Position numbers and translations under genes: made by a program. The notes beneath the pieces were generated by a model. It saw nothing but the letters and a program-made list of their open reading frames with translations, was not told the DNA's origin and ran no database searches. Shown piece by piece: positions 8,683 through 43,965 of a stretch of DNA of 64,000 nucleotides (positions within the stretch are counted from its first letter, which is position 1; each line of letters begins with the position of its first letter). The DNA lies in the NCBI GenBank assembly GCA_964511765.1, contig CAZEGE010000001.1, positions 41,728-105,727 on the forward strand, in the 5' to 3' direction. Source of the stretch: an uncultured Anaerolinea sp. (GTDB lineage Bacteria; Chloroflexota; Anaerolineae; Anaerolineales; Villigracilaceae).

Positions 8683-8691
8683 GATTTTTCT

Positions 8692-14581: not shown

Positions 14582-16027
14582 ATGACCACCCTTCTCATCA
14601 AAAACGCGCATATCGTCACCATGGACGACCATCAACGGGAGATTCCCGAAGGTGGTCTTTTTATTCGCGAGGGAATCATTGAAAAGGTCGGCCCGATGAG
14701 CGAACTTCCCGACCCTTCGACAGGTTCAGGGCAGGCAGCCGATGAAGTTCTCGACCTCAAAGGTCATGTCGTTCTGCCTGGGCTGGTCAATACGCATCAT
14801 CATTTTTATCAAACCCTGACGCGCGCCGTTCCTGCCGCGCAGGACGCCAATCTTTTCAACTGGCTCAAAACTCTTTATCCCATTTGGGCGCGCCTCACTC
14901 CCGACGATATTTTTATCTCGACTCAGACCGCACTGGCAGAATTGGCCCTATCGGGATGCACCACCGCAGCGGATCATCTCTACCTCTTTCCAAACGGTTC
15001 AAAACTGGATGATGAAATTGCTGCGGCTGCCGAGATCGGATTACGCCTGCAAGCCTCGCGCGGTTCGATGAGCCTCGGCGAATCCAAAGGTGGACTCCCG
15101 CCCGATTCAGTGGTGGATAGCGAAGAAAATATCCTCAAAGATTCGCAGCGCCTGATCGAAAAATATCACGATGCAAAGCCCGGCGCGATGACTCAGATCG
15201 TACTCGCGCCCTGCTCGCCATTCAGCGTCACATCAGATTTAATGAAACAGTCTGCCAAACTGGCGCGTGATTATGGCGTGCATCTGCATACGCATCTCGC
15301 TGAGACCGAAGACGAAGAACAATTCTGCCAGCAGATGTTTGGCCATCGTCCCGTCGGTTATATGCAGGCTGTGGACTGGGTGGGTGAGGACGTCTGGTTT
15401 GCACATGCCGTCTGGGTCAACGATGAGGAGATACAGGTCTTTGCCAAACATCATTGCGGCGTGGCGCACTGTCCCACCTCAAATATGCGGCTGGCCTCTG
15501 GCATCGCGCCCATCAAGGAATTTCGCGCCGCTGGCGTGGACGTCGGCCTCGGCGTGGACGGCTCCGCTTCCAACGACGGCTCGCATCTGCTGGCGGAAGT
15601 CCGCAATGCGCTATTGGTGTCGAGAGTCAAAGAAGGCATGACAGGCTTCTCCGCTACACCCTCTCCCTCAGGGAGCCCCACAGGGGTGCTTCGCAAAGGG
15701 CAGGGTGAGGGCGAGCGAAAATTGATGACCGCGCGCGAAGCCTTGCATCTCGGCACACGCGGCGGCGCGGCGGTTCTGGGCCGTAATGATATCGGCAGCC
15801 TGGAAGCGGGCAAATGCGCCGACTTCTTCGCGGTCAACTTGAATCAACTGAGTTATACGGGCATGCATGACCCTGTGTCTGCCATCGTGTTTGGCCAGTC
15901 CATGAATGTGGATTACACTGTTGTCGGCGGAAAATTTATCGTAAAGGAAGGTCAGCTTATAACTATTAATGAACGTAAGTTGGTTGAAAAACATAACCAA
16001 GCCGCGAAACGATTATTGTTATCTTAA
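14582..16027 (+). CDS. 8-oxoguanine deaminase-like amidohydrolase
   Basis: PGLVNTHHHFYQTLTRA, HTHLAET, HCPTSNMRLASGI, GLGVDGSASNDG. Confidence 0.85.
   Translation: MTTLLIKNAHIVTMDDHQREIPEGGLFIREGIIEKVGPMSELPDPSTGSGQAADEVLDLKGHVVLPGLVNTHHHFYQTLTRAVPAAQDANLFNWLKTLYPIWARLTPDDIFISTQTALAELALSGCTTAADHLYLFPNGSKLDDEIAAAAEIGLRLQASRGSMSLGESKGGLPPDSVVDSEENILKDSQRLIEKYHDAKPGAMTQIVLAPCSPFSVTSDLMKQSAKLARDYGVHLHTHLAETEDEEQFCQQMFGHRPVGYMQAVDWVGEDVWFAHAVWVNDEEIQVFAKHHCGVAHCPTSNMRLASGIAPIKEFRAAGVDVGLGVDGSASNDGSHLLAEVRNALLVSRVKEGMTGFSATPSPSGSPTGVLRKGQGEGERKLMTAREALHLGTRGGAAVLGRNDIGSLEAGKCADFFAVNLNQLSYTGMHDPVSAIVFGQSMNVDYTVVGGKFIVKEGQLITINERKLVEKHNQAAKRLLLS
14712..14732. repeat. REP-like repeat inserted in frame
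   Basis: ACCCTTCGACAGGTTCAGGGC adds DPSTGSGQ between ELP and AADEVLDL. Confidence 0.6.
15659..15711. repeat. CCCTCTCCC/GGGAGAGGG palindrome with nested 21-nt insert, in frame
   Basis: CCCTCTCCCTCAGGGAG[CCCCACAGGGGTGCTTCGCAA]AGGGCAGGGTGAGGG. Shares the core CCCTCTCCCTCAGGGAG with the 38531-38578 copy. Confidence 0.7.
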
Positions 16028-17410: not shown

Positions 17411-17435
17411 TTGAATGTCCAGTTATGGAGAATTT

Positions 17436-19226
17436 ATGACCTCATCCACAAAACTCACTCGTACCCTTGTTGACGTAGCCATGGGACGCACCCAGGCCGA
17501 CCTTGTCATTCGGGGAGGTAAATGGGTGAGTGTGCAATCGGGTGAGGTCGTCCCGGATACCGATATTGCCATTGTGGCGGGTCACGTCGCTTACGTCGGG
17601 CGTGATACCAGTCATGCAATTGGAAAAAAGACAAAAGTCATCGAGGCCAGAGGGCGTTATCTTGTGCCCGGCCTTCTGGATGCGCATATGCACGTTGAAT
17701 CCGGCATGGTCACAGTGACAGAGTATGTGCGCGCGGTGGCAGTGCATGGAACGACCGGCATGTTCATCGACCCGCACGAGATCGCCAACGTCTTTGGTCT
17801 CAAAGGTGTGAAGTTAATGGTGGACGAGGCTCGCAAACAGCCCGTCCATGTCTGGGTACAAATGCCCTCTTGTGTTCCATCTGCGCCGGGGTTTGAAACA
17901 CCGGGTTCATCCATTGGCCCGAGGGAAGTGGCGGAAGCCATGAGCTGGAAGGGCATCATTGGCTTGGGAGAGATGATGAACTTCCCCGGCGTGTTCATGG
18001 GCGATAAAAAAATGCTGGAAGAAATGTCCGTGACGCATGCGGCAGGGAAGGTGATTGGCGGGCATTATGCCTCGCCGGACCTCGGCCTTCCGTTTCACGG
18101 GTATGTCGCGGGCGGCGCGGAGGACGACCACGAAGGCACTCGCCTGGATGATGCGGTCGCGCGTGTCAGGCAGGGTATGAAAGCCATGCTGCGTTACGGG
18201 TCCGCCTGGCATGACGTGGCGGCTCAGGTCAAAGCCATAACCGAAAAGAAATTGGATGCGCGCCGCTTCATCCTTTGCACCGATGATTCCCACGCGGCAA
18301 CGCTCACGCAGGAAGGTCACATGGACCGCGTGCTGCGCCATGCAATTTCGGAAGGTTTAAATCCGATGACTGCCATTCAAATGATGACCATCAATGCCGC
18401 CGAGCATTTCGGTCTTACCAAGGAAATGGGTATGATCGCGCCCGGCCGCTGGGCGGACCTGCTCCTGGTTGAGGATTTGATGAATTTCAAGGCCGATCTG
18501 GTCATCGCCAAAGGACAGGTCATTGCCGAGAATGGTGAATTGCAGGTCAAATTGCCCGTGGTCAAGTATCCCAAATGGGCCACCAATTCTGTGCATTTGA
18601 AGAGAAATCTCAAAGCGGAGGATTTTGCCCTGCGGACGAGAGCAAACGACGGAGTGGAGATTGAGGCGCATGTCATCGGTGTGATCGAGAATCAGGCGCC
18701 GACCCGCCATCTCAGGATGAAGGTCAAGGCAGACGCTGGCGAAGTCAAAGCGGATCTGAAACGCGACCTCGCGAAGATCGCGCTGGTGGAACGTCATCGC
18801 GCAACAGGCAAGGTCACGGTGGGATTGGTGAGCGGATTTGAATTCACAAGGAAGTGCGCGATCGGCTCGACAGTGGCGCATGACAGCCATCACATGATCG
18901 TGGTCGGAACTGATGATGAGAGCATGGCACTCGCTGCGAATGAACTGGCGAAATGCGGCGGCGGCCAGATTGTGGTGATCAACAGCGAAGTGGTTGGGCT
19001 GGTGGATTTGCCGATCGCGGGCTTGATGTCGAACGAGAGCGCGGATATTGTGGCGCAGAAAACCGCCTCGGTGCTTGAGGGTTTCAAGGCCTGCGGTTGT
19101 GAACTGAACAATCCGAATATGCAGTTAAGCTTAATGGCGCTGGTGGTCATACCTGAATTAAGGATTTCTGATAAGGGTCTTGTGGATGTAACCCAATTTG
19201 ATTTTGTGCCTGTGCTGGAAGATTGA
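17436..19226 (+). CDS. ade: Adenine deaminase
   Basis: PGLLDAHMHVES, DPHEIANV, GLGEMMN, DDHE, LCTDD, STVAHDSHH. RBS GGAG before 17436. Confidence 0.92.
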   Translation: MTSSTKLTRTLVDVAMGRTQADLVIRGGKWVSVQSGEVVPDTDIAIVAGHVAYVGRDTSHAIGKKTKVIEARGRYLVPGLLDAHMHVESGMVTVTEYVRAVAVHGTTGMFIDPHEIANVFGLKGVKLMVDEARKQPVHVWVQMPSCVPSAPGFETPGSSIGPREVAEAMSWKGIIGLGEMMNFPGVFMGDKKMLEEMSVTHAAGKVIGGHYASPDLGLPFHGYVAGGAEDDHEGTRLDDAVARVRQGMKAMLRYGSAWHDVAAQVKAITEKKLDARRFILCTDDSHAATLTQEGHMDRVLRHAISEGLNPMTAIQMMTINAAEHFGLTKEMGMIAPGRWADLLLVEDLMNFKADLVIAKGQVIAENGELQVKLPVVKYPKWATNSVHLKRNLKAEDFALRTRANDGVEIEAHVIGVIENQAPTRHLRMKVKADAGEVKADLKRDLAKIALVERHRATGKVTVGLVSGFEFTRKCAIGSTVAHDSHHMIVVGTDDESMALAANELAKCGGGQIVVINSEVVGLVDLPIAGLMSNESADIVAQKTASVLEGFKACGCELNNPNMQLSLMALVVIPELRISDKGLVDVTQFDFVPVLED

Positions 19227-19232
19227 GGTGAT

Positions 19233-19949
19233 ATGGCTAATTTTCCTTTTCAAAGAGTGCAGGTCGATCTGGCAGCGCTGATCGCTCGTTCGCCAGCGGG
19301 CCAGCGGCTTCCGTCCGAACCTGATCTTGCCAAACAACTTGGCGTTTCGCGCGCCACCTTGCGCGAGGCCATGCGTTCGTTTGAAACGCAGGGATTGATT
19401 CGCCGCAGGCAGGGTTCTGGAACTTTTGTGGTCGGCAAGATGCAGGTGCTGGATAGCGGCCTGGAAGTGCTTGAAAGCCTTGAGACGATTGCAATGCGCC
19501 TGGGGCTTGAGGTCTCTGTCAGTAATTTGAGCATCGAGCCGGCCGCTGCCGATGAAGAGCTGGTGAAGCTGCTGGATGTTGCGATGGGTGAAAAATTAAC
19601 TCGGGTCTGCCGCGTGGTGCGCACAGATAACAGACCCGTGGCATATCTTGAGGATATTCTGCCTGAGACCTTTCTCTCCTCGAAGGATTTACCCGAGGAT
19701 TTTCACGGTTCGGTTCTGGACTTTTTGCTGGGTCGCGGCGATGCTCTGGAATCTTCCCGCGCGAACGTCAGCGCCATCGGTGCAACAGCTGAAGTTGCCA
19801 AGGCGCTTGAGGTGCAGCGTGGCGACGTGTTATTGCATTTTTATTCACAGTTATATAATCGCAGCGGAAAAGTAGTGGATTATTCCCTTGGTTATTTTAT
19901 TCCCGGATATTTTCATTTCCATATCGTCCGGCGCGTAGGCATTACCTGA
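19233..19949 (+). CDS. GntR family regulator, HutC subfamily (HTH + UTRA)
   Basis: LPSEPDLAKQLGVSRATLREAM...RRQGSGTFV, then a C-terminal UTRA-type domain. Confidence 0.9.
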   Translation: MANFPFQRVQVDLAALIARSPAGQRLPSEPDLAKQLGVSRATLREAMRSFETQGLIRRRQGSGTFVVGKMQVLDSGLEVLESLETIAMRLGLEVSVSNLSIEPAAADEELVKLLDVAMGEKLTRVCRVVRTDNRPVAYLEDILPETFLSSKDLPEDFHGSVLDFLLGRGDALESSRANVSAIGATAEVAKALEVQRGDVLLHFYSQLYNRSGKVVDYSLGYFIPGYFHFHIVRRVGIT

Positions 19950-20003: not shown

Positions 20004-21227
20004 ATGACAAAAGTGAACGACATAAAGAAAAAAGTACAGGACAATCGTGAAAATATTATTCAATTCTTGCGTGATATTGTTGCCATTCCCAGCATGGAAG
20101 GCCAATTGAAGGACGTCGGCGAGCGCATCCAGGCCGAGATGCTGAAACTAGGTTTCGACGAGGCGCGCTTCGACAAGATGGGCAACACCATCGGTCGCAT
20201 TGGCGACGGTCCCAAGGTGATCGTCTTCGACTCGCATATTGACACCGTGGGCGTCGGCGACCCCAGCGAATGGGAATGGGATCCGTTCAAGGGCAAGGTT
20301 GAGGACGGCGTTTTGTATGCGAGGGGTGCATGTGATGAAAAAGGCAGCACGCCCGGCATGGTGTATGGTATGGCAATTGCCCGCGATCTGGGTCTGCTCG
20401 ATGGCTACACCGCCTACTACTTCGGCAACATGGAAGAGTGGTGCGATGGCATCGCACCCAACGCCTTCGTCGAGACCGACCCCCGGGTGAAACCCGATTT
20501 CGTGGTCATCGGCGAGCCGACCAAGATGCAGGTCTACCGCGGGCATAAAGGGCGAATCGAATTGAAGGTCACCGCCACCGGGCGCTCAGCGCACGCGGCG
20601 TCGCACTACCTGGGCGACAACGCCGTGTACAAGATGATGGCGATCATCACGCAAATCCGCGAGTTGGATCGTCGGATGCGCTTCGGTATGGGCTATCATC
20701 CGGTGCAGGGATTTCCCTCAATCGCGGTGACCGATGTTTCGGCGCGCACGGCTTCACTCAACGCGGTGCCCGATCAGTTCACGATCTATATTGATCGCCG
20801 CATCACTTCGAACGAGCCGCACGACGCAGTGATTGAGCAGATCAAGGGACTGATCCCCGACTATTTGCAGGACGAAATTCACGTCGAAGAACTGTTCTAC
20901 GACGCGCCGTCCTACACAGGCTTCGTCTTTCCGGTGTTGAAGTTCTACCCGCCCTGGCTGCTGGATGACGCGCATCCATTGACGCAGGCGGGGCAGTGCA
21001 CTATCGAGACGCTGTGGGGCGAGAAGCGGATGCTGGGCACGTGGGACTTCTCGACCAACGGCACCTATTGGGCTGGCAAGGCGAATATCCCGTCCATCGG
21101 CTTTGGCCCTGGCGATGAGAAAACCGCGCACATGCGCCACGAAAACGTGTTGCTCGACGAGGTGGTACGCGCCACGGAGTTCTATGCGCTGTTGCCAAAA
21201 ATGTTGGCTGAACAAAGCCAAAAGTGA
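20004..21227 (+). CDS. ygeY: YgeY-family M20 metallohydrolase
   Basis: DSHIDTVGVGD, RGACDEKG, EEWCDG, GEPT, YRGHKGR, WDFSTNG, GFGPGDE...AH. Confidence 0.8.
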   Translation: MTKVNDIKKKVQDNRENIIQFLRDIVAIPSMEGQLKDVGERIQAEMLKLGFDEARFDKMGNTIGRIGDGPKVIVFDSHIDTVGVGDPSEWEWDPFKGKVEDGVLYARGACDEKGSTPGMVYGMAIARDLGLLDGYTAYYFGNMEEWCDGIAPNAFVETDPRVKPDFVVIGEPTKMQVYRGHKGRIELKVTATGRSAHAASHYLGDNAVYKMMAIITQIRELDRRMRFGMGYHPVQGFPSIAVTDVSARTASLNAVPDQFTIYIDRRITSNEPHDAVIEQIKGLIPDYLQDEIHVEELFYDAPSYTGFVFPVLKFYPPWLLDDAHPLTQAGQCTIETLWGEKRMLGTWDFSTNGTYWAGKANIPSIGFGPGDEKTAHMRHENVLLDEVVRATEFYALLPKMLAEQSQK

Positions 21228-21345: not shown

Positions 21346-22299
21346 ATGCGTAGTTTCAATGGTCGCGACATCTTGTCGCTCAAGGAATTCGAGCGCAATG
21401 AGTTTTTCCACGTGTTCGATGTGGCTCAGAAAATGGAGCCAATTGCACGCGCAAGAAAGAACGTGGATCTGCTCAAGGAGAAGACTCTGGTAACGGCTTT
21501 CTACCAGCCATCGACGCGCACGCGTCTGGCTCATGAATCGGCCATGCACCGCCTCGGCGGCCATGTCACGGGATTTTCAGATGCCAAGATGACCCGCGCC
21601 GGGGACTTCTACCAGGAGTCCATCAAGGATACGGTCAAGATGCTGGAGTACTATGGCGATGTGATCGTGATGCGCCATTTTCAGCAAGGCGCGCCGCATG
21701 AAGCCGCGAAGTGGGCGAGTGTGCCCATCATCAATGGCGGCGATGGCTGGGGCGAGCACCCGACGCAAATTCTCACCGACCTGTACACGGTTTTGCGTGA
21801 GAAAGGCCGCATTGATGGTCTCAAGTGGCTGGCGGTTGGCGATATGCGCATGCGAACTATGCACTCCCTCGGATATGCTTTGAGCCAGTTTGATTGCCCG
21901 ATCACATTTGTCGCTCCGCCGGAAATGGGACTCACCGATGAATTCAAGCAGGAACTCAAACAGTACAGCGTAAATTTCAAGGAAGCCGATCATGTTGAGA
22001 AAGCCATTGCAGAGGCAGATGTGATCCTGGTCGAGCCAGTTGTACAGCCAGATTACACAAAGTCTCGCGATGAGCGCACGGGCGAACTTAATTTGACGCC
22101 TGCGAACTACAAGATCACGCGCGAACTGCTGGAGACGAAAGCCAAGTCCGATGCCATCCTGCTTCACTCGCTCCCGCGCATGGACGAGATCCCAACTGAT
22201 GTGGATATCACACGCTGGTCGCGCTACTGGCAGGAAGCCTTCAACGGTGTCGTGATGCGAATGTCTTTGCTGGCGCTGGTCTTGGGCGCAACGGAATAA
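21346..22299 (+). CDS. Aspartate carbamoyltransferase-like enzyme with non-canonical acceptor site
   Basis: STRTR, VMRH, EHPTQ, RTMHSL and HSLPR present; the ATCase KGES and TRxQxER motifs are absent. Confidence 0.8.
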   Translation: MRSFNGRDILSLKEFERNEFFHVFDVAQKMEPIARARKNVDLLKEKTLVTAFYQPSTRTRLAHESAMHRLGGHVTGFSDAKMTRAGDFYQESIKDTVKMLEYYGDVIVMRHFQQGAPHEAAKWASVPIINGGDGWGEHPTQILTDLYTVLREKGRIDGLKWLAVGDMRMRTMHSLGYALSQFDCPITFVAPPEMGLTDEFKQELKQYSVNFKEADHVEKAIAEADVILVEPVVQPDYTKSRDERTGELNLTPANYKITRELLETKAKSDAILLHSLPRMDEIPTDVDITRWSRYWQEAFNGVVMRMSLLALVLGATE

Positions 22300-22327
22300 T
22301 AGTCGGCTAGTTGCTAGTCGGCTAGTC
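22300..22327. repeat. Short tandem repeat upstream of the four-helix-bundle gene
   Basis: TAGTCGGC-TAGTTGC-TAGTCGGC-TAGTC. Confidence 0.7.
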
Positions 22328-22341
22328 AAGGAGATGGCGCG

Positions 22342-22710
22342 ATGAGTACAGTCAAGAACTTCGAGGAGTTGCAGAGCTGGCAAAAGGCTAGGAGTTAGGC
22401 TGGGTATATTTACGAACTGACGCGGAAAGAAAAGTTTTCTCGTGACTGGGCTTTATGCAACCAGATACGAGATGCCGCAGGCTCTGTCATGCACAACATC
22501 GCCGAAGGTTTTGAAGCAGGCTATGACCCCGAATTTGCCCGTTTCCTGAAAATGGCAAGACGTTCAGCGGGCGAAGTCCAATCTGAACTGTATTTAGCCC
22601 TGGATGCCAGCTACATTACCAACGAGGAGTTGAAAAAGGCTTATGACCTTGCGGTAGAGACGAAAAAATTGATCAATGGAATGTTGAAATACCTGCGTAA
22701 TTCCGACTAA
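22342..22710 (+). pseudogene. Four helix bundle protein (23S rRNA IVS protein family) with in-frame TAG
   Basis: MSTVKNFEELQSWQKARS*AGYIYELT...NQIRDAAGSVMHNIAEGFE...FARFLKMARRSAGEVQSELY. TAG at 22396-22398; RBS AAGGAG. Confidence 0.8.
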
Positions 22711-22727
22711 CCGACTAGAAGGACTAG
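22703..22727. repeat. Short tandem repeat downstream of the four-helix-bundle gene, complementary to the upstream repeat
   Basis: CCGACTAA-CCGACTAG-AAGGACTAG. CCGACTA is the reverse complement of TAGTCGG. Confidence 0.7.
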
Positions 22728-22747
22728 AAGACAAGGAGACTAATAAT

Positions 22748-23737
22748 ATGCAAACAAATTTTCGTGGTCGTGATTTCATTGGCGACCTCGACTTCACAAA
22801 AGAGGAAGTCGAAACTGTTTTGGAAGTGGCCTGGGATCTTAAGCGCAAGCGCGCACTTGGCGAACCGCATCCATACCTGCGGGATAAGGTGCTGGCGATG
22901 CTCTTCTTCTTTTCATCCACACGCACACGTGGCTCGTTCGAGGCGGGCATGGCGCAGCTTGGCGGACACGGCGCTTTCATCGACAGCAATACAACCCAAA
23001 TTTCACACGGTGATACCCCGGTTGAAATTGGCGAGATCTTTGGCCGCTATTTTGACGGTATTGCCATCCGTCACTGCGATTACGGCGACGGAAACAAATA
23101 TCTAAATGCGGTGGCCAAGTCCAGCCGTGCGCCTGTCCTGAATATGCAATGCGATATTTATCACCCCTTCCAGTGCCTGGCTGATTTGATGACCATCATG
23201 GAAAAGAAGGGCAAGGATTTGCGCAAGAAGAAGATCGTAGTCTCATGGGCTTATGCCGCTTCCTACCTCAAGCCGATTTCTGTTCCCCAGTCTTTGATTT
23301 TGCAAATGCCGCGCTTTGGCATGGATGTGACGCTGGCTTATCCGCCTGAATTCTCATTGATGCCTGATATCGTTGAGCAGGCCAAGCAGCAGGCCAAGAT
23401 CGCCGGCACCAAGTTCGAGATCATTGACTCTAAAGATGGCATGACCGAAGCCTGCAAGAACGCGGACGTGATCTACGCCAAATCCTGGGGTCCGCTTTTG
23501 ACTACAAACGAGAAGGTTGAAGGCAAGAAACTGCAGGATATGTACAAAAATTGGATCATGGACGATGCCAAATTAAAGGTGGCCCACAAGGACGCCATCT
23601 ACATGCACCCGTTGCCTGCTGACCGCGATGTCGAAGTCACCAGCGATGTCCTGGATGGGCCGCAATCCGTGGTCTTTGATGAAGCTGAGAATCGCCTGCA
23701 CGCGCAGAAGGCCGTCATGGCGTTGACGATGGCGTAG
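22748..23737 (+). CDS. YgeW/AOTCase-like carbamoyltransferase
   Basis: SSTRTR, HPFQ, SWAYAASYLKPISVPQS, YAKSW, MHPLPADR, EAENRLH. Confidence 0.8.
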   Translation: MQTNFRGRDFIGDLDFTKEEVETVLEVAWDLKRKRALGEPHPYLRDKVLAMLFFFSSTRTRGSFEAGMAQLGGHGAFIDSNTTQISHGDTPVEIGEIFGRYFDGIAIRHCDYGDGNKYLNAVAKSSRAPVLNMQCDIYHPFQCLADLMTIMEKKGKDLRKKKIVVSWAYAASYLKPISVPQSLILQMPRFGMDVTLAYPPEFSLMPDIVEQAKQQAKIAGTKFEIIDSKDGMTEACKNADVIYAKSWGPLLTTNEKVEGKKLQDMYKNWIMDDAKLKVAHKDAIYMHPLPADRDVEVTSDVLDGPQSVVFDEAENRLHAQKAVMALTMA

Positions 23738-23745
23738 GAGAACGC

Positions 23746-24699
23746 ATGACCAATAAACTTGCAGTAATCGCCATCGGCGGCAACTCGCTTATCGTTGACG
23801 AAAAGAACGTAAGCGTTGAAAGCCAGTACAGGGCCGCAAAAGAGACTGCCGTTCATATTGCCGATATGATCGAGCAGGGTTGGGAAGTGGCAATCGGTCA
23901 TGGGAATGGTCCGCAGGTCGGATTCATCCTCAGACGTTCAGAAATTGCTGCGCGAGTCGAGGGGATGCACGAAGTCCCGTTGGATGTGTGCGGCGCGGAT
24001 AGCCAGGGTGCAATTGGGTATGCCCTCCAGCAAAACCTGCAAAACATTCTCTATCAGCGCGGCATCAAGAAGAAAGTGGTCACGGTCATTACGCAGACCC
24101 TTGTGGACAAAGCCGACCCGGCCTTCCAGAAACCGGCCAAGCCGATCGGCGGATTCATGACACAAGAGGAGGCCGAGCGCCGCCAGCGCGAACAAGGCTG
24201 GAGTGTGATCGAGGACGCCGGGCGCGGTTGGAGGCGTGTGGTCGCTTCGCCCCTGCCGAAAGAAATCGTTGAATTGGAAACCGTTCAAACTTTGCTGGAA
24301 AAGGGGATTGTTACCATTACGGTGGGCGGTGGCGGAATCCCGGTGATTGACCCCGGTGATGGAAATTACGAAGGTACTGCGGCGGTAGTGGATAAGGATT
24401 ATGCCTCGTCCCTGCTGGCGCGTGAAATTAAGGCTGATCTATTCGTCATCTCCACCGCGGTTGAAAAGGTTGCCATTAACTTTGGCAAGCCAGATCAAAA
24501 ATGGCTGGATAGAATAACACTTGCCGAGGCCAAGGCTTACCTGGCTGAAGGCATACACTTTGCCAAAGGCTCCATGGCTCCGAAGATTCAAGCTGTGATC
24601 TGGTATCTTGAGAACGGCGGCAAACAGGCGCTCATCACCAATCCTGAAAACATTGGCCGCGCGCTCAAAGGTGAAACAGGTACCTGGATCGAGCGATAG
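23746..24699 (+). CDS. arcC: Carbamate kinase
   Basis: VIAIGGNSL, HGNGPQVG, GWRRVVASPLP, AVVDKD, KGSMAPKI. Confidence 0.93.
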   Translation: MTNKLAVIAIGGNSLIVDEKNVSVESQYRAAKETAVHIADMIEQGWEVAIGHGNGPQVGFILRRSEIAARVEGMHEVPLDVCGADSQGAIGYALQQNLQNILYQRGIKKKVVTVITQTLVDKADPAFQKPAKPIGGFMTQEEAERRQREQGWSVIEDAGRGWRRVVASPLPKEIVELETVQTLLEKGIVTITVGGGGIPVIDPGDGNYEGTAAVVDKDYASSLLAREIKADLFVISTAVEKVAINFGKPDQKWLDRITLAEAKAYLAEGIHFAKGSMAPKIQAVIWYLENGGKQALITNPENIGRALKGETGTWIER

Positions 24700-24704: not shown

Positions 24705-26720
24705 ATGAAAAAATGGATCGAACGGCTTGATGGCGTGAAATTTAAAACGCGTAGCGCTGCGTGGTTTATGCTATTAATTGCCGTACTGACCTATGGACTG
24801 TTCTTCTGGAAGCGCGGTTTTTATTGGGATGAATTTCCCTGGGCGTGGATCTATTATCGCCTGGGTCCTGATGTCTTAACAAAAACCTTCTCCACCAGCC
24901 GCCCGTTTTGGGGCATGATCTATCAGCTCACCCTGCCAGTAATTGGACCGAACCCCTGGGTTTGGCAATTACTGGCAATTGTTTTGCGCTGGTTTACTGC
25001 GCTTTTGTTATGGGCGATACTGCGTATTTTGTGGCCCGCGCACTCAAAACCCGCATTTTGGGCGAGTTTACTTTTCCTTGTCTACCCCGGTATGGGGCAG
25101 CACTTCATTGCCATGATGTACAGCCATTTTTATATTGTGCTGTCGTGCTATTTGCTTTCCATTTATCTTTCACTGCTGGCTCTGAAGGATGAAAAATACC
25201 GCTGGGTTTTATTTGGGGCATCCTGGTTGCTGGCCGCGGTCAACCTGCTGACCATGGAATATTTTTATTTCCTCGAGTTCGCACGGATTTTCCTCTTCTG
25301 GCAGGTGTTAACAGGCAGGAATAAAAACCGCATCCAAAAAACCGTATTGTACTTTTTGCCATTCTTGTTGATATTTTCAGGCGTCACATTTTGGCGTATG
25401 ACCTTCTTTACCTTCCAAAACGCCAGTTATCGATATGTTTTGCTGGACGCATTCCGCGATGATTTTCTGGCAGGGTTATTGTTGTTTATAAATAACGTTG
25501 CCCTGAGTTTCTGGCGGACCGTTTTTGAAGTCTGGTTGTATCCACTGCTAACCCTTGGCTTATCGGGATTTGGACCGCTCACGCTCGCCTTGATGCTGGT
25601 CCTGTTATTCTCGATCATTTTTCTGGTTGGCATATATTTGTTCAAATTTACAATAAACGACTCCGATGATCGTGAATTTGCCCGGCAGGCAGGTTTTATC
25701 GGTTTGGTTTTTTGGGGTCTATCGGGCGGATCGGTGTGGGTGATAGGCGTCGTTCCGCAGTTGAACTTCTCGATAGATCGCTTCATGCTGCCCTTCATGC
25801 TGGGGGCGAGTCTATTGCTGGCTAGTCTGATCGCGTTGATTAAAAACCGGCGCTCCCAAATGATCCTGGTGGCTTTGCTGGTTGGCTTTGCCGCGAGCAG
25901 ACATTTCCGTCTCGAAGATATTTTCCGCCACGATTGGGCCACCCAGCAAGACTTCTTTTGGCAAATGACATGGCGAATTCCGGCGCTGGAAAAAGGGACG
26001 ATCCTGCTTTCCAACGACCTGCCTGTTACCTACTATTCAGATAATTCATTGACCGGGCCTCTGAATTGGATCTACAGTCCGCCTGGTGAGATGAACAGTA
26101 TTTTATACTTCGCCTCCATACGGGTTGGAAAAACATTGCCAAGCGTGGAGCCGGGTCAAGCACATCAGTTGTACTATATCGGCCCGACCTTTTATGGGAA
26201 CACTTCCAAGATCCTTGTGATCCATTATGAACCGCCCGGTTGTTTCCGCGTGATCGATCCTGAGGTTGAAGAAACGAATCGGCTTCTGCCTCCTGCCCTT
26301 AGAGATGTTGCGCGCTATTCCAATCAGGATGTGATCCTGATCGAACAGCAGGCGCAGCTCCCAGGTCAGCTTTACGGAAGCGAGCCGTCGCATGGCTGGT
26401 GTTATTATTTTGGACAGGCTGAATTGGCGCGTCAAAAAGGAGATTGGGACCAGGTAGTCGCACTTGGTGAAACCGCGTTTGCGCTTGACGACCACCCAAA
26501 TGACCCAGTCGAACGTTTCGTTTTTATTGAAGGTTATGCTCATGTTGGAGATTGGAAAAAGGCGGTAGAATTATCAAATACTTCCTATAAAATATCAAAA
26601 AACTATGTCGGTCCGCTGCTCTGCAGGTTGTGGGATCGGATTGAACGCCAGACTCAAAGTACCCCGGAGCAGGTTTCTGCACTGGATAAAGTACGAAGCG
26701 AGTTCGAGTGTTTACCTTAG
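24705..26720 (+). CDS. Large multi-pass membrane protein with soluble C-terminal domain (possibly GT-C fold)
   Basis: 671 aa. GFYWDEFPW and SRPFWG N-terminal loop, about 11 TM segments, helical C-terminus. Confidence 0.7.
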   Translation: MKKWIERLDGVKFKTRSAAWFMLLIAVLTYGLFFWKRGFYWDEFPWAWIYYRLGPDVLTKTFSTSRPFWGMIYQLTLPVIGPNPWVWQLLAIVLRWFTALLLWAILRILWPAHSKPAFWASLLFLVYPGMGQHFIAMMYSHFYIVLSCYLLSIYLSLLALKDEKYRWVLFGASWLLAAVNLLTMEYFYFLEFARIFLFWQVLTGRNKNRIQKTVLYFLPFLLIFSGVTFWRMTFFTFQNASYRYVLLDAFRDDFLAGLLLFINNVALSFWRTVFEVWLYPLLTLGLSGFGPLTLALMLVLLFSIIFLVGIYLFKFTINDSDDREFARQAGFIGLVFWGLSGGSVWVIGVVPQLNFSIDRFMLPFMLGASLLLASLIALIKNRRSQMILVALLVGFAASRHFRLEDIFRHDWATQQDFFWQMTWRIPALEKGTILLSNDLPVTYYSDNSLTGPLNWIYSPPGEMNSILYFASIRVGKTLPSVEPGQAHQLYYIGPTFYGNTSKILVIHYEPPGCFRVIDPEVEETNRLLPPALRDVARYSNQDVILIEQQAQLPGQLYGSEPSHGWCYYFGQAELARQKGDWDQVVALGETAFALDDHPNDPVERFVFIEGYAHVGDWKKAVELSNTSYKISKNYVGPLLCRLWDRIERQTQSTPEQVSALDKVRSEFECLP

Positions 26721-26856: not shown

Positions 26857-28134
26857 ATGCGTAAGAATTTTGCCCGCCTCGCAATGTTTGCGTTGGCACT
26901 CATGTTAGTCCTGTCCGCTTGTGGTGGTGCTCAACCTGCCGCCACCGAAGCCCCTGCTGCCGGGGGAGCTCCTGCTGCTACGGAAGCCCCTGTTGCCGCT
27001 ACTGAAGCGCCCGCTGATTCGAGCGGCTTTCAGATCCCCGAGGTAGTAGATGGAAAATTCAATGTCGCCATGGTTTTGATCGGACCCCACGATGATGGCG
27101 GTTGGTCGCAGGCGCATTACGAAGGCCTGATGTACATTGAAGAGAATGTCCCGAATGTGCACACGGCCTATATTGAAAATGTACCTGAAGGTGCAGATTC
27201 CGAACAGGTTTTCCGCAGCCTTTCACGCAAGGGATTCAACCTGATCTTCGGCACATCCTTTGGTTTCGGCGACCCGATGCAGGCTGTCGCTGAGGAGTTC
27301 CCGGATGTGATGTATATTCACCTAACCGGTATCAACTCCAACCAGACCAACTTTGGCAACCTGATGGGTGCGATGGAAGATATGAAATACTTGGCTGGAA
27401 TGCTGGCAGGTGCGCGCGCCAAGATGGACGGAAACCCCAAACTTGGTTATATGGCCACCTTCCCCATCCCTGAAGAAATTCGCCTCGGTAATGCCATTGC
27501 GTTGGGTATGAAGAAGACCTGCCCCGAATGCACCATGGATGTCCGCTGGATCAATACCTGGCATGACCCTGTCATTGAGAAAGAAGCTGCGGCTTCCCTC
27601 TTTGATGCTGGTGCTCAGGTTGTGTTCACCGGCGCTGATACTCCTGCGAATGCCGATGTAGCGCAGGAAAAAGGCAAGTGGGGCGTAACCTATGACTGGT
27701 ATGGTTCCTGCAAGGTGGATGCTTGTCTCACCGCTCCTTACTGGGTCTGGGGTCCAATTTATTCCGCAATCACCGAAAAAGTAATTGCCGGAACCTATGT
27801 CCCTGGTTGGGATTACTTTGATGCCGAGACAGGTGCATTGGGATTGTATGGTTTCATGGAAGGCCAGGAACTTACCCCCGGTGTGGCCGATCTTGATCCT
27901 GAAGTGATTGCAATGGTGAAAGATACCCTTGCCAAGATGCTCGCTGGCGAATTCACTCGCTTTGATGTGTTCACTGGCCCGATTAACGATAATCAGGGTA
28001 ACGTGGTTCTGCCTGCCGGCCAAAGCCTGGAACAGGTCGATCTTGACGCCTTCCCTGAATATGGTTTGCCGTGTACCGTCTCAGTCTGTATGAAGTGGTG
28101 GGCCGAAGGCATTACCGCTGAACTGCCTCAATAG
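26857..28134 (+). CDS. BMP-family (nucleoside/purine) ABC substrate-binding lipoprotein 1
   Basis: Lipobox LSAC, AATEAP repeats, DGGWSQAH, IFGTSFGF, NAIALG. Confidence 0.88.
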   Translation: MRKNFARLAMFALALMLVLSACGGAQPAATEAPAAGGAPAATEAPVAATEAPADSSGFQIPEVVDGKFNVAMVLIGPHDDGGWSQAHYEGLMYIEENVPNVHTAYIENVPEGADSEQVFRSLSRKGFNLIFGTSFGFGDPMQAVAEEFPDVMYIHLTGINSNQTNFGNLMGAMEDMKYLAGMLAGARAKMDGNPKLGYMATFPIPEEIRLGNAIALGMKKTCPECTMDVRWINTWHDPVIEKEAAASLFDAGAQVVFTGADTPANADVAQEKGKWGVTYDWYGSCKVDACLTAPYWVWGPIYSAITEKVIAGTYVPGWDYFDAETGALGLYGFMEGQELTPGVADLDPEVIAMVKDTLAKMLAGEFTRFDVFTGPINDNQGNVVLPAGQSLEQVDLDAFPEYGLPCTVSVCMKWWAEGITAELPQ

Positions 28135-28151
28135 CCGTTAAATTGATAAAT

Positions 28152-28183
28152 GGGCCAGGACTCTCAGGGTTCTGGCCCTCTTT
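28152..28183 (+). terminator. Stem-loop after BMP gene 1
   Basis: GGGCCAGGAC...GTTCTGGCCC followed by TCTTT. Confidence 0.6.
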
Positions 28184-28294
28184 GTACAATGTCTGGTTGA
28201 CCGTCCCGCAGATTTGACGAGAGAATTTCATAATTCTAGGGAAACCTGCGGGATGTTTCCCAATATATCGACTTTATCGCAGGAGAGTAACCTG

Positions 28295-29890
28295 GTGATT
28301 AATCAAACCTCCTCAACGCTTGCTATACCCTCGGAAACACCCTTGATTGTCGAAATGCGTGGGATCGTCAAGCGTTTTCCCGGTGTGCTGGCAAACGACC
28401 ACGTTGATTTTGAATTATGTCAGGGCGAAATACACGGATTGCTGGGAGAGAACGGGGCCGGCAAAAGCACTTTAATGAATGTATTGGCTGGCTTATATCG
28501 CCAGGAAGCCGGCACTATTTTGGTCAGGGGTGAGCCGAAAGTTTTTTCCTCCCCGCGTGATGCGATCAAATCGGGTATTGGCATGGTGCATCAGCATTTC
28601 ATGCTTGTGCCATCTCAAACCGTCACGGAAAATATTTTGCTTGGGCTTGATGATCCGCGCTTCATCATGCGTTTACCTGATTACGATACCAAGATTGCAG
28701 AATTGGGTGAACGCTTTGGATTAAAAGTGGATCCGCGCGTAAAGATCTGGCAATTATCTGTGGGGGAACAACAGCGTGTTGAAATTCTAAAAATGCTTTA
28801 TCGCGGCGTGGACGTGCTTATCATGGATGAGCCGACTGCTGTGCTTGCCCCACAAGAGATCGTAGGTTTATTTGAAACCTTGCGAGCCATGATTGCTCAG
28901 GGGAAATCCGTTATTTTTATCAGTCATAAATTACAGGAAGTCAGCGCCATTGCGGACCGCGTCAGTGTTTTGCGGCGTGGGGTGGGTACGGCTTCGGGCG
29001 TGCCTTCAAAGGGGATTTCACGCCAGGAATTGGCGCGTTTGATGGTAGGGCGCGAAGTTATTTTTTCAGTTGATAAAAAGCCCTGCAATCCACAAAGTGT
29101 TGTGCTGGATGTTAAAGATATTCATGCCGAGAATGATAAAGGCCTGCCTGCTTTGCGCGGGGTTTCATTGAATGTGCGCGCGGGTGAAATTGTCGGTGTG
29201 GCGGGTGTGGCAGGGAATGGTCAGAGCGAGCTTTCACAGGTTATTTCCGGTATGCGTAAATGTAAACAGGGACAGGTTCTGTTGAATGGCGATACGGTCA
29301 GCAACCGAAATACGTTATTTGGCATTCAACACGGCATGGCGTATGTCCCCGAGGATCGCACCCATGTAGGCAGCGCCCCCAATCTCAGCGTGACAGATAA
29401 CGTCATTATGAAGAATTATCGCAAACCTCCGATCTCAAATAAGGGTTTGCTGGATATGAAAGTTGCCACCAAACTTGCCAATGAACTTAAAACGGCCTAC
29501 GACATTATCGTGCCCAGTGTTTCCACGCCCGTTCGTTTATTATCGGGCGGAAACCTGCAGCGTGTGATCCTGGCGCGTGAGATCTCCGGTTTGCCTGCGT
29601 TCATGGTTGCGGTGCAGCCGACGCGTGGCCTGGATGTCGGCGCAATCGAAGGAGTCCACCGTTTATTGCTTGCCCAGCGCGAAGCGGGTGCGGCTGTCCT
29701 GCTTATTTCTGAGGAGCTGGAGGAATTGCTCTCGCTCAGTGATCGCGTTTATGTGATCTACGAAGGAAAGATTATGGGCGAGGTGAAGGTCGAAGGCGGC
29801 GAAGCAGATGAGGACCTGGTTGATACGATTGGTCAGATGATGACGGGCACTCCGCTCGATCAAATCCCAAAAGAAGGAGTGGCTGCATAA
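28295..29890 (+). CDS. Tandem-domain ABC ATPase (NupA/CUT2 type)
   Basis: GENGAGKS, LSVGEQQR, IMDEPT, LSGGNLQR, QPTRGLD. GTG start with AGGAG RBS. Confidence 0.92.
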   Translation: MINQTSSTLAIPSETPLIVEMRGIVKRFPGVLANDHVDFELCQGEIHGLLGENGAGKSTLMNVLAGLYRQEAGTILVRGEPKVFSSPRDAIKSGIGMVHQHFMLVPSQTVTENILLGLDDPRFIMRLPDYDTKIAELGERFGLKVDPRVKIWQLSVGEQQRVEILKMLYRGVDVLIMDEPTAVLAPQEIVGLFETLRAMIAQGKSVIFISHKLQEVSAIADRVSVLRRGVGTASGVPSKGISRQELARLMVGREVIFSVDKKPCNPQSVVLDVKDIHAENDKGLPALRGVSLNVRAGEIVGVAGVAGNGQSELSQVISGMRKCKQGQVLLNGDTVSNRNTLFGIQHGMAYVPEDRTHVGSAPNLSVTDNVIMKNYRKPPISNKGLLDMKVATKLANELKTAYDIIVPSVSTPVRLLSGGNLQRVILAREISGLPAFMVAVQPTRGLDVGAIEGVHRLLLAQREAGAAVLLISEELEELLSLSDRVYVIYEGKIMGEVKVEGGEADEDLVDTIGQMMTGTPLDQIPKEGVAA

Positions 29891-31011
29891 TGGCTGAGTC
29901 GACCTCTGTTAAACCAAGAATGCCATTTCGTATCCGGATTGAGCCGCGCTTGAGCGAGCCTCCGGCATGGTATCCCGCTGTAATCTCCCTGGGTGCGCTT
30001 ATTGTAGCCTTGATATTGGGTGGTATTTTGATCACATTTTCCGGCGGCGATGCGATCCGTTCTTATCAACATATAGCCAAGGCTTCGTTTGGTGATATTG
30101 GTGTGCTTTCTGATACCATCGTAAAAGCAACGCCGATCCTTTTGGCGGCTCTGGCTTGTGCGGTGGCGTTCCGCATGAAATTGTGGAATATCGGCGCGGA
30201 GGGGCAGTTCATCATGGGTGCTTTTGGCGCGAGCGCGATCGTGCTTGCACCGGTATTGCCTGCGGAAACTTCGCGCTGGGTGTTTATTCCTGTCATGATG
30301 CTGGCAGGCATGGTTTCAGGTGCGATCTGGGGGTTTATCCCCGGCTATCTTAAGGCAAAATTCAATGTGAATGAGATCATCAGTACCTTGATGTTGAATT
30401 ATGTTGCAGTGGCGTGGGTTAACTTTTGGATCTTTGGTGTGTGGACGGAAGGCGGTTTTCAAATGTCCCCCAAGTTCCCAAACAATTCCTGGTTGCCGCG
30501 TTTGCTGGATTATGCCAAGGCTTTTCCAGCCTTTCGCGGATTGACTACTCACCTTGGATTGGTTATTGGGATCATAGCGGCATTTATTTTGTGGTTAATC
30601 ATCTTTCGCAGCCGTTGGGGATATGAGATCCGCTTGATTGGCGATAATCCAAAGGCGGCACAATATGCAGGCATCAATATCACACGGAACACGATCTGGG
30701 TGATGATGCTCTCTGGCGCGCTGGCAGGACTGGGTGGCATGTCCGAAATTTCCGGCGTTGTCCATCGTTTGCAAACTGCGCCGATTGCGGCCGGATATGG
30801 TTTTACGGGAATCATCGTTGCCTGGCTGGCTAAACTGAATCCACTGGTCATCATATTCGTTTCCGTCTTATTCGGTGCGTTGATCCTCGCAGGACGAGAG
30901 ATCCAGCCTTCGGGTGTCCCCAAAATGATCCAGGGAATTATACTGGTCTGTCTCATCGCCAGCGATTTCCTGCTGCGCTATCGGATCGTGATTGCACACG
31001 GGGAGGAATAA
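29890..31011 (+). CDS. Nucleoside ABC permease
   Basis: LWNIGAEGQF, NEIISTLMLN, GYEIRLIGDN, GYGFTGIIVAWL. Confidence 0.9.
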   Translation: MAESTSVKPRMPFRIRIEPRLSEPPAWYPAVISLGALIVALILGGILITFSGGDAIRSYQHIAKASFGDIGVLSDTIVKATPILLAALACAVAFRMKLWNIGAEGQFIMGAFGASAIVLAPVLPAETSRWVFIPVMMLAGMVSGAIWGFIPGYLKAKFNVNEIISTLMLNYVAVAWVNFWIFGVWTEGGFQMSPKFPNNSWLPRLLDYAKAFPAFRGLTTHLGLVIGIIAAFILWLIIFRSRWGYEIRLIGDNPKAAQYAGINITRNTIWVMMLSGALAGLGGMSEISGVVHRLQTAPIAAGYGFTGIIVAWLAKLNPLVIIFVSVLFGALILAGREIQPSGVPKMIQGIILVCLIASDFLLRYRIVIAHGEE

Positions 31012-31013
31012 TT

Positions 31014-31982
31014 ATGGACTTTACCATTATCTTACAGGCGGGCATCGCAAGTGGCACCGTACTACTATTTGCAACCATCGGTGAGTTGTTTGCTGAACGC
31101 TCCGGCGTTCTTAACCTCGGCGTTGAAGGCATGATGCTGATCGGCGCGATGAGCGCGTTTAGCACAACCATTGCAACTGGCAATCCATGGCTGGGTGTCT
31201 TGGTGGCCATGTTTTTTGCGGGCCTCATCAGCCAGATCCATGCCTTCATTGTGATCACTCTGCAGGCCGATCAGGTAGTCAGCGGTCTCTCGCTTACTTT
31301 TTTGGGCGCCGGCATCAGTCTCGTATTAGGCGAAGGCTTGAGCAAAGCCGGGACGGTTTCGCTCCTGCCTAACTTTTCATTCCCATTGCTGACCTTAATC
31401 CCGGTCGTTGGAAAAATATTTTTCACCAATCAAAGCGTGCTCGTTTATATCGGCTATCTGCTGGTTCCACTTTCCTGGTATTACATCAATCGTACGCGCC
31501 CGGGTCTGCACTTGCGCGCAGTAGGTGAATATCCATCGGCCGCAGATGCATTGGGAATCAATGTTTTCCGCATGCGTTATTTATATGTTTTTGTTGGCGG
31601 AATGTTGGCTGGGCTGGCAGGTGCGACAATCAGTCTCGCGGTTTCGCCAGGTTGGTTCAGCGAACTGACCACGGGTGGGCAGGGTTGGATCGCGATCGGA
31701 CTGGTGATTTTTGCGCAATGGGATCCATTTCGCGCGGCGATTGGCGCGTATGCTTTCGGCGCTCTTCGCCGCCTCATTTTGGATATTCAAGGACCGCTCG
31801 TTTTGTTGGGGTTTGCAAATCCGTTTTATTACAACCCTTACCTTGGTTTCTTCCTGCAAATGTTGCCCTATCTCTTCACCGTTGTTGTTTTGGTGATCGG
31901 TTCGCGTGAAGCCATGCGGAAACGCATTGGCGCGCCAGCCGCGTTGGGCACTCCTTATATTCGCGGAGAACGTGGAAAATAA
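31014..31982 (+). CDS. Nucleoside ABC permease
   Basis: ERSGVLNLGVEGMML, GLHLRAVGEYP, GQGWIAIGLV, PAALGTPY. Confidence 0.9.
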   Translation: MDFTIILQAGIASGTVLLFATIGELFAERSGVLNLGVEGMMLIGAMSAFSTTIATGNPWLGVLVAMFFAGLISQIHAFIVITLQADQVVSGLSLTFLGAGISLVLGEGLSKAGTVSLLPNFSFPLLTLIPVVGKIFFTNQSVLVYIGYLLVPLSWYYINRTRPGLHLRAVGEYPSAADALGINVFRMRYLYVFVGGMLAGLAGATISLAVSPGWFSELTTGGQGWIAIGLVIFAQWDPFRAAIGAYAFGALRRLILDIQGPLVLLGFANPFYYNPYLGFFLQMLPYLFTVVVLVIGSREAMRKRIGAPAALGTPYIRGERGK

Positions 31983-32188
31983 ATATTTTGCGCAATATTG
32001 ATCTAAAATAACCGCGCAATTTGCTTGTACGGATGATTTCATCTCTGGCTCATGGCCACAATCTGAATTCAAAATCAACTGCCGTTGTATTGAATTCAGA
32101 TTATTTTAAGGCGAGCCCCTGTCAATTGGATCAATATTCTCAAATTGGAGTGGAGATTCTGGATAAAAATCACGTTATTCTTATTACA

Positions 32189-32203
32189 AATTGTCTGACA
32201 ACT
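32189..32203. promoter_or_regulatory. Palindromic operator, site 2
   Basis: AATTGTC-T-GACAACT, upstream of a TATACT -10 (32219-32224) and of the second ABC operon. Confidence 0.6.
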
Positions 32204-32251
32204 TTTAAGCACTTTCAGTATACTGATACAATAGGAGACAGGTAGCTGCCC

Positions 32252-34335: not shown

Positions 34336-34439
34336 ACCATGGATAAGGAGGTTGTGTAAAAAGAGTTATTAGATAAATCACAGGTTGTGTCAAATTTTGT
34401 GCTTAAACAGTCTCATATTTAAATCAGGAGAAGAAGAAA

Positions 34440-35504: not shown

Positions 35505-35523
35505 GATAAATACCTGATAAAAA

Positions 35524-35557
35524 ACCTGACAAGTCATCGTAGGATGACTTGTCAGGT
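35524..35557. terminator. Stem-loop after BMP gene 2
   Basis: Perfect 15-bp inverted repeat ACCTGACAAGTCATC-gtag-GATGACTTGTCAGGT; no clear U tract. Confidence 0.6.
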
Positions 35558-35629
35558 AAAAGACAAGCAATTATTTTGAATTTCTCTTTTTGATTATTTA
35601 TCCCCCGAAGTTGTTAACTGGATGGTGTA

Positions 35630-37198: not shown

Positions 37199-37320
37199 AT
37201 CGAATTAATAGTAGTACAATTTTATTCCATCGGTTCGGTGGTCGTGGCGCGGCGCGCGCCACGGCGTTGGGCAAACCCATCGAAAAGTGCCGCCGTCCAG
37301 TAAGAAAAAGGACACCACCC

Positions 37321-38226: not shown

Positions 38227-38289
38227 CCACTGAAAATGGAGTCAAAAGTCTCCTGATTTTTGACTCCATTGCTACAGAGGAAATCAATT

Positions 38290-42280: not shown

Positions 42281-42291
42281 TTTAGGTTGGT

Positions 42292-43956: not shown

Positions 43957-43965
43957 GTTGTAGTC

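Follow-up and report, generated by a model that had tools for sequence, protein, structure and literature searches.

The DNA analysed here is a 64,000-nucleotide stretch (the window) from an uncultured Anaerolinea sp. of the Chloroflexota (GenBank assembly GCA_964511765.1, contig CAZEGE010000001.1, positions 41,728 to 105,727 of the forward strand). It contains a gene, which we named psATC (pseudo-ATCase), whose product resembles aspartate carbamoyltransferase (ATCase, PyrB) but has kept only one of the four residues that hold aspartate. We propose that psATC is a catabolic pseudo-ATCase of the reductive uric-acid pathway, in which it would use phosphate to cleave off the second of the two ureido groups of 2,3-diureidopropanoate. 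We consider that this proposal has an even chance of being correct; its substrate, regiochemistry and direction are all inferred. The pseudo-ATCase class itself has been known since 2013. What is new here is the link between psATC and a pathway published in 2025, a three-state pattern in the presence of the hydrolase YgeY, and the predicted substrate.

An ATCase-like protein with an altered aspartate pocket

The open reading frame (ORF) at positions 21346-22299 of the forward strand has a stop-free translation of 317 amino acids. Pfam recognizes both halves of the fold in this protein (OTCace_N, 154 bits, and OTCace, 84.6 bits), and its closest solved structure is the ATCase of Pyrococcus abyssi (1ml4; E value 1.7e-68, residues 4-315). 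Alignment to E. coli PyrB revealed the two-domain fold of ATCases and ornithine carbamoyltransferases (OTCases) together with the carbamoyl-phosphate motifs. Thus, S56-T-R-T-R60 of psATC corresponds to S52-R56 of E. coli PyrB, R110-H111 to R105-H106, H138-P-T-Q141 to H134-Q137, and H274-S-L-P-R278 to H265-P-L-P-R269, this turn reading HSLPR in psATC. In addition, R170 of psATC is the counterpart of R167, the ligand of the alpha-carboxylate of aspartate. The initial annotation of this gene had called the carbamoyl-phosphate site intact, and the alignment places its four motifs (STRTR, RH, HPTQ and HSLPR) where that claim needs them.

The remainder of the amino-acid pocket is different. The 80s loop reads KMTRAGDFYQES in psATC (K81-M-T-R84-A-G-D87-F-Y89-Q-E91-S) versus NTSLGKKGET (with S80 and K84) in E. 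coli PyrB, and is one to two residues longer. The 240s region is longer by four residues, and the PyrB segment T228-R229-V-Q231-K-E-R is replaced by EPVVQPDYTKSR (E230-P231-V-V-Q-P-D-Y-T238-K-S-R241). Two substitutions that had been noticed initially, FYQES for KGES in the 80s loop and EPVVQPDY for TRxQxER, are therefore confirmed: the region around K84 is rebuilt, and R229 and Q231 are replaced, both in the alignment and in the orthologues described next. Of the aspartate ligands K84, R167, R229 and Q231, only R167 (as R170) is kept, and this is true for all 51 full-length orthologues that were compared.

These 51 orthologues come from different species and share 58-97% pairwise identity, and 99 of the 317 positions are invariant among them. 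The carbamoyl-phosphate ligands and R170 are invariant, as are K81, T83, R84, A85, G86, D87, Y89, Q90 and E91 in the 80s loop and E230, P231, Q234, D236 and Y237 in the 240s region. Because the invariant positions include the new motifs, psATC seems to have been kept as an enzyme and not as a relic; judged by these comparisons, it is a maintained enzyme family, neither a chance resemblance nor a decayed pyrB.

In ATCase structures, R167 holds the alpha-carboxylate of aspartate, and R229, Q231 and K84 hold its beta-carboxylate. Since psATC has kept R170 and carries acidic or neutral residues (D87, E230, D236, Q234 and Y237) in place of the beta-carboxylate ligands, its predicted pocket suits an N-carbamoyl alpha-amino acid whose side chain does not end in a carboxylate, the side chain that would fit being an ammonium or a ureido group.

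psATC is not the ATCase of the pyrimidine pathway

The source assembly, which is 95% complete, encodes four proteins with the ATCase/OTCase fold. One of them, on contig C37, is a canonical PyrB (KGES, RVQKERF and HPLPR motifs; 372 bits against the model TIGR00670 and 319 bits against NF002032), so that the separate pyrB for which the initial annotation had advised a search is present; another is the OTCase ArgF on contig C27. psATC scores 254.4 bits against TIGR00670, above the cut-off of 236.95, and 226 bits against NF002032, below the cut-off of 263. It shares 37% identity with E. coli PyrB and 40-45% with archaeal ATCases, and its locus has no pyr context. The canonical PyrB on contig C37, and the presence of psATC in only three of the seven genomes of the genus, show that psATC is distinct from the pyrimidine-pathway ATCase of this genome.

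Every one of the near-identical public proteins is named ‘aspartate carbamoyltransferase’, which is explained by a score that just exceeds the TIGR00670 cut-off. The suspicion that the gene would be mis-annotated as pyrB was therefore right. The same cut-off passes thousands of database entries of this family under that name, and metabolic reconstructions of Chloroflexota and Actinomycetota thus count a pyrimidine enzyme for what is probably a purine-catabolic one.

Placement among the pseudo-ATCases

ATCase-like proteins were collected by an exhaustive HMMER search of 1.8 billion representatives, after which a motif table was compiled. A large and diverse set of them has an ‘x-x-R-A-G-D’ 80s loop, has lost one residue ahead of its R167 equivalent, and is devoid of RxQxER. 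In a maximum-likelihood tree, obtained by a quick IQ-TREE search without bootstraps and rooted on OTCase and YgeW, these RAGD-loop sequences form a basal grade on the ATCase side. psATC lies in clades whose support in the SH-like approximate likelihood ratio test (SH-aLRT) is 99 (3 rows), 97 (10 rows) and 96 (23 ‘RAGD-loop’ rows), and all RxQxER sequences fall outside.

The name ‘pseudo-ATCase’ was given to a class of such proteins by Barba, Dutoit, Legrain and Labedan (BMC Syst Biol 2013; PMC4016543). On its motifs and context psATC is a member of this class: it is annotated as ATCase, a genuine ATCase is also present in its genome and its context is not that of pyr genes, while STRT and HPTQ are kept, HPLP is changed to HSLP, and RxQ to V-Q-P. 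Its placement in the subgroups of that study rests on motifs and context. Subgroup 2 consisted of a single Nocardioides genome (sp. JS614), in which the gene adjoins a ygeW homologue, xdhABC and hyuA, and for which no function was given (PMC4016543). Like the JS614 protein, psATC coexists with a genuine PyrB, is basal to the ATCases, adjoins a ygeW homologue and has xdh and hyuA genes nearby. An orthologue with 68% identity to psATC in a Nocardioides metagenome-assembled genome has a ygeW-homologue/xdh/hyuA context identical to that of subgroup 2. Unlike the one-genome subgroup, the psATC type occurs in no fewer than 53 species from several phyla and can be linked to the 2025 pathway. Table 1 of the 2013 study lists the pair HSLP and VxP under ‘pseudo-ATCase 3’, while its text gives the matching context under subgroup 2; rows 2 and 3 of that table may be interchanged, with row 2 showing alternative residues for a one-member subgroup.

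The sole pseudo-ATCase with an assayed activity is Rxyl_2847 of Rubrobacter xylanophilus (subgroup 1), a ureidoglycine carbamoyltransferase (UGTCase) by which allantoate is phosphorolysed to ureidoglycine and carbamoyl phosphate (PMC4016543). psATC shares with it the grade within the superfamily, the ‘xxRAGD’ 80s loop, a carbamate kinase gene alongside and a location in a purine-degradation cluster. The substrate of Rxyl_2847 is a diureido acid (allantoate is 2,2-diureidoacetate), one carbon shorter than the one proposed for psATC. The two differ in motifs, HPLA and AIA/AIS/SIA in Rxyl_2847 versus HSLP and EPVVQPDY in psATC, and in neighbours, those of Rxyl_2847 being the allantoinase and uricase of the oxidative route. 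A representative of the HPLA type (P0171) lies beside an allantoinase-like gene and falls in a different clade from psATC.

Compared with E. coli PyrB, psATC thus has the same fold and length, the carbamoyl-phosphate ligands (S52-R56, R105, H134 and Q137) and R167, but lacks the ligands K84, R229 and Q231 and has longer 80s and 240s regions. A tblastn search with psATC against 72,556 plasmids returned only ordinary pyrB genes with at most 40% identity and gave no sign of plasmid carriage.

The gene cluster and the reductive uric-acid pathway

The reductive uric-acid (2,8-dioxopurine) pathway was published in 2025 (bioRxiv 10.1101/2025.04.24.650524; Life Metabolism). Xanthine dehydrogenase (XDH), a reductase, SsnA and HyuA take urate to 2,3-diureidopropanoate, which has two ureido groups, SsnA and HyuA opening the two rings after the reduction of urate (2025 papers). 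In E. coli, YgeW removes one ureido group in a phosphate-dependent reaction, and the resulting carbamoyl phosphate yields ATP through the carbamate kinase YqeA; ATP formation from the diureido acid by YgeW and YqeA has been shown for this organism (bioRxiv 10.1101/2025.04.24.650524). The other ureido group is hydrolysed by YgeY, and YgeX degrades diaminopropanoate. According to the bioRxiv paper, YgeW acts on the 3-ureido and YgeY on the 2-ureido group, and the Life Metabolism paper reports the reverse; the latter also points to a variant in Chloroflexota whose reductase depends on F420. An ATCase-like gene, be it PyrB or a second carbamoyltransferase, is mentioned in neither.

psATC lies on the forward strand of the window in the operon order YgeY > psATC > YgeW-like carbamoyltransferase > carbamate kinase. 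The genes of the cluster are listed below with their strand; the 54 loci are those of the next section.

8104-10056 (-): MocA/YgfJ and a YqeC-MocA fusion, for maturation of the selenium/molybdenum cofactor of the hydroxylase
14582-16027 (+): 8-oxoguanine deaminase (urate-forming), with counterparts in at least 22 of the 54 loci
17415-19226 (+): adenine deaminase (TIGR01178, 514 bits, cut-off 472.5)
19233-19949 (+): GntR/UTRA regulator heading the operon; conserved ahead of psATC in many loci
20004-21227 (+): YgeY-family M20 hydrolase (TIGR03526, 451 bits, cut-off 321.5)
21346-22299 (+): psATC, 317 residues; carbamoyl-phosphate site and R167 equivalent kept, K84, R229 and Q231 replaced
22748-23737 (+): YgeW-like carbamoyltransferase, 329 residues, with STRTR, HPFQ and HPLPA; below every NCBIfam cut-off
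23746-24699 (+): carbamate kinase (TIGR00746, 382 bits, cut-off 358), starting 8 nt past the YgeW-like gene
24705-26720 (+): 671-residue protein that matches neither Pfam nor NCBIfam, its gene starting 5 nt past the carbamate kinase gene; homologues in 4 of the 54 loci
26857-37198 (+): two Bmp/PnrA-type ABC uptake systems (binding proteins, ATPases and four permeases)
37267-38226 (+): molybdenum hydroxylase FAD subunit, YgfM/XdhB-like
38260-41157 (+): fused Fe-S/Mo subunit, selenium-dependent xanthine-dehydrogenase-like (XdhD-like; TIGR03311, 753 bits, cut-off 830)
45413-46681 (+): threonine-synthase-like pyridoxal-phosphate (PLP) enzyme, 422 residues (threonine synthase model, 271 bits, cut-off 303)

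In the tree, the YgeW-like enzyme groups as the sister of E. coli YgeW (SH-aLRT 92), with which it shares 33% identity; it scores 191 bits against the YgeW model, whose cut-off is 453. The remaining pathway genes were found on other contigs of the source genome, namely SsnA on contig C44 (501 bits, cut-off 455) and HyuA (D-hydantoinase) on contig C132 (504 bits, cut-off 393). The gene set of the window and the genome is that of the reductive uric-acid (2,8-dioxopurine) pathway; YgeY and carbamate kinase are encoded in the window, and SsnA and HyuA elsewhere in the genome.

The window follows the same operon logic as E. coli, with YgeY, a YgeW-like enzyme and a carbamate kinase. The E. coli cluster encodes one carbamoyltransferase, whereas the window encodes a second, psATC, which comes from the ATCase branch and not from the YgeW branch. 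Other differences from E. coli are that YgeX was not found in the source genome and that related loci seem to use a reductase dependent on F420. The SsnA gene on contig C44 (L018:12316-15255) lies away from the main cluster and is directly followed by genes for an F420-dependent NADP oxidoreductase and an F420 gamma-glutamyl ligase, a grouping that fits the F420-dependent variant proposed for Chloroflexota.

The diaminopropionate ammonia-lyase YgeX was not found in the 95% complete source genome (best match 48 bits, cut-off 276), and it is absent from four of the five relatives searched. The PLP gene at 45413-46681 was considered as a candidate YgeX and dropped, its nearest NCBIfam models being threonine synthases (271 bits, versus 65 bits for the YgeX model). 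A gene of this threonine-synthase-like type is also near the cluster in psATC-negative relatives, and its product may be a local stand-in for the ammonia-lyase.

Conservation of the locus and distribution of YgeY

Orthologues of psATC with 63-91% identity were found at 53 loci in a scan of GTDB species representatives (one genome per species). Together with the window these gave a set of 54 loci, in which all ORFs were clustered; many loci end at contig ends, so the gene counts are lower bounds. The orthologues belong to Chloroflexota (Anaerolineales, Caldilineae, Thermoflexus, Ardenticatenaceae and Limnocylindria), Actinomycetota (Acidimicrobiia, Gaiellales, Nocardioides and Streptosporangiaceae), Phycisphaerae and others. 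The core order is psATC, then the YgeW-like gene (at least 42 of the 54 loci), then carbamate kinase (at least 39), and just after the latter the threonine-synthase-like PLP enzyme is encoded in at least 23 loci. Other recurrent genes encode 8-oxoguanine deaminase (at least 22), the Mo subunit of XDH (at least 16), SsnA (at least 11) and HyuA (at least 10), and LLM-class F420 oxidoreductases, NADPH:F420 reductases and GntR regulators are also present. YgeX was found in none of the 54 loci, and no allantoinase, uricase, or allantoate or ureidoglycolate enzyme turned up in them. YgeY is encoded in only seven loci, all from close Anaerolineales relatives.

Two further PLP enzymes occur in these loci (L030, L035, L037, L044 and L047, among others) and have no copy in the window: a CysK-like enzyme of about 495 residues in at least 24 loci, and a third PLP-fold enzyme of about 480 residues in at least 10.

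The presence of YgeY was then viewed across whole genomes in an evenly drawn sample of 301 Chloroflexota genomes, with psATC orthologues defined by at least 68% identity. Of these genomes, 19 have psATC, 56 have SsnA, 49 have YgeY and about 60 have the YgeW-like gene. As the distribution of the YgeW-like gene matches that of SsnA and YgeY, it is probably the carbamoyltransferase of the base pathway, and psATC an add-on. YgeY was found in 38 of the 43 genomes with SsnA and without psATC, versus 10 of the 19 with psATC; these counts are descriptive and not a statistical test, the genomes being related. When the psATC locus lacks YgeY, YgeY is mostly missing altogether: in 13 of 15 such genomes, searched in full, no gene scored above the cut-off. 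Within the source genus, the three genomes with psATC have it exactly between YgeY and the YgeW-like gene, and in the other four these two genes are adjacent.

Three states can thus be distinguished: YgeY with the YgeW-like gene; YgeY, psATC and the YgeW-like gene, as in the window; and psATC with the YgeW-like gene but without YgeY. They make a clean candidate case of a hydrolase displaced by a phosphorylase that was recruited from a biosynthetic enzyme family. A strict replacement of YgeY by psATC was considered and rejected, both being present, and adjacent, in the window and in 10 of the 19 psATC-positive Chloroflexota.

Proposed function of psATC and alternative explanations

In the reaction scheme that we favour, the YgeW-like enzyme would take one ureido group of 2,3-diureidopropanoate with phosphate, and psATC would take the second with phosphate in place of water, which is the step of YgeY. 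Its likeliest target would be the 2-ureido (alpha) group of 3-amino-2-ureidopropanoate or of 2,3-diureidopropanoate, and the products 2,3-diaminopropanoate or albizziin plus a second carbamoyl phosphate, from which the adjoining carbamate kinase would make extra ATP. A catabolic role is supported by the order YgeY > psATC > YgeW-like > carbamate kinase inside a purine-degradation cluster, and the step of YgeY by the YgeY-less state, which leaves two carbamoyltransferases beside a carbamate kinase for exactly two ureido groups. The rebuilt pocket, the separate PyrB and the purine-degradation context all support the initial suggestion of a catabolic carbamoyltransferase for a different amine. 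Precedent for the chemistry may be seen in the phosphorolysis of allantoate, the analogue one carbon shorter, by Rxyl_2847. A 2-ureido target agrees with the regiochemistry of the bioRxiv paper and less well with the reverse assignment in Life Metabolism.

Stated most specifically, psATC would be an N2-carbamoyl-2,3-diaminopropanoate (or 2,3-diureidopropanoate) phosphorylase, in the forward sense a diaminopropanoate carbamoyltransferase, which with the YgeW-like enzyme would allow a fully phosphorolytic anaerobic fermentation of purines and by which YgeY would have been non-orthologously displaced in Actinomycetota and part of the Chloroflexota; the chance that all of this holds falls somewhat short of even. 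If it does, carbamoyl phosphate would retain the two ureido carbons of the purine ring, and substrate-level ATP would double from one to two per purine. As a second, unrelated carbamoyltransferase in the operon, psATC offers a natural system in which to study the dispute on the regiochemistry of YgeW and the formation of ATP from both ureido groups.

Several observations weigh against this proposal. Rxyl_2847, the only assayed pseudo-ATCase, is distant from the psATC subfamily, and the 2025 papers conflict on the ureido group removed by YgeW, so that the regiochemistry of psATC is uncertain. psATC is accompanied by an adjacent YgeY in the window and in roughly half of the Chloroflexota that carry psATC, and with two ureido groups to remove, a set of three enzymes looks redundant; YgeY could serve as a hydrolytic bypass under limitation of phosphate or ADP, or act on another substrate. 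Six psATC-positive genomes have no SsnA match at E <= 1e-90, with more divergent SsnA-like genes in related loci, and the genomes behind the YgeY counts are not independent of each other. ATCase binds L-aspartate. The pathway intermediate is reported to be (R), that is, D-configured, and for this reason a residue-by-residue transfer of the ATCase binding model is weakened.

The main competitor of the favoured proposal leaves psATC catabolic and feeding carbamate kinase, but acting on another ureide: oxalurate, allantoate, N-carbamoyl-beta-alanine or, as an isozyme, the same ureido group as the YgeW-like enzyme. The intact carbamoyl-phosphate site and the linkage to carbamate kinase are compatible with any ureide, and HyuA-type enzymes open dihydropyrimidines too, yet we regard this explanation as possible but rather doubtful. 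Oxalurate and allantoate (as for an oxamate transcarbamylase or the Rubrobacter type) have a carboxylate beside the ureido nitrogen, which matches the retained R170, and one pseudo-ATCase is an allantoate phosphorylase (PMC4016543). However, the conserved neighbours of psATC are SsnA, HyuA, XDH and F420 enzymes, with no allantoinase, uricase, or allantoate or ureidoglycolate enzymes among them, and for allantoate in particular the UGTCase motifs HPLA and AIA are absent from psATC and the HPLA-type P0171 is in another clade. An enzyme for N-carbamoyl-beta-alanine would be expected to retain R229 and Q231 and to lack R167, the opposite of what psATC shows, and for an isozyme the constant accompaniment by a YgeW-like gene is not expected.

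A synthetic role, in which the YgeW-like enzyme would supply carbamoyl phosphate and psATC would pass its carbamoyl group to an amine, in salvage, in detoxification or in making a small metabolite and without any ATP yield, appears improbable. Thermodynamics favours the transfer of a carbamoyl group to an amine, YgeW phosphorolysis has been reported as unfavourable (2025 literature), and the threonine-synthase-like and CysK-like PLP enzymes of the psATC operons could make or use unusual amino acids. Nevertheless, carbamate kinase is encoded alongside in 39 of the 54 loci, the remainder of the operon serves degradation under the control of a GntR/UTRA regulator, the psATC loci revealed no biosynthetic partners, and the YgeY pattern points to a decarbamoylating role. 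The least probable explanation is that psATC is a true PyrB, present as a second and divergent copy, or a relic that is inactive or regulatory, and for practical purposes we consider it excluded. The TIGR00670 score (254 versus 237 bits), the 40-45% identity to archaeal ATCases and the public names would agree with a PyrB, but K84, R229 and Q231 are all replaced, the NF002032 score is too low (226 versus 263 bits), psATC branches outside the RxQxER clade, the canonical PyrB is on contig C37, and the distribution of psATC is patchy even inside the genus; the 99 invariant positions, new motifs included, speak against a relic.

Other features of the window

psATC and the YgeW-like gene are separated by 448 nt (22300-22747), which contain an ORF for 73 amino acids at 22489-22710 and, just after psATC at 22300-22326, direct repeats of TAGTCGGCTAGT. 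In other loci the two genes follow each other without a gap or are separated by other small ORFs. In the forward-strand gene order, a cupin gene lies between those for 8-oxoguanine deaminase and adenine deaminase. The YqeC-MocA fusion on the reverse strand (8692-10056) encodes 454 residues, of which 18-216 correspond to YqeC and 249-448 to a MocA/YgfJ cytidylyltransferase, and is followed by a separate MocA gene (8104-8682, reverse strand). Finally, a three-gene block of DruA, HerA-like and NurA-like genes (41201-45198, reverse strand) splits the purine cluster between the xanthine dehydrogenase and PLP genes.

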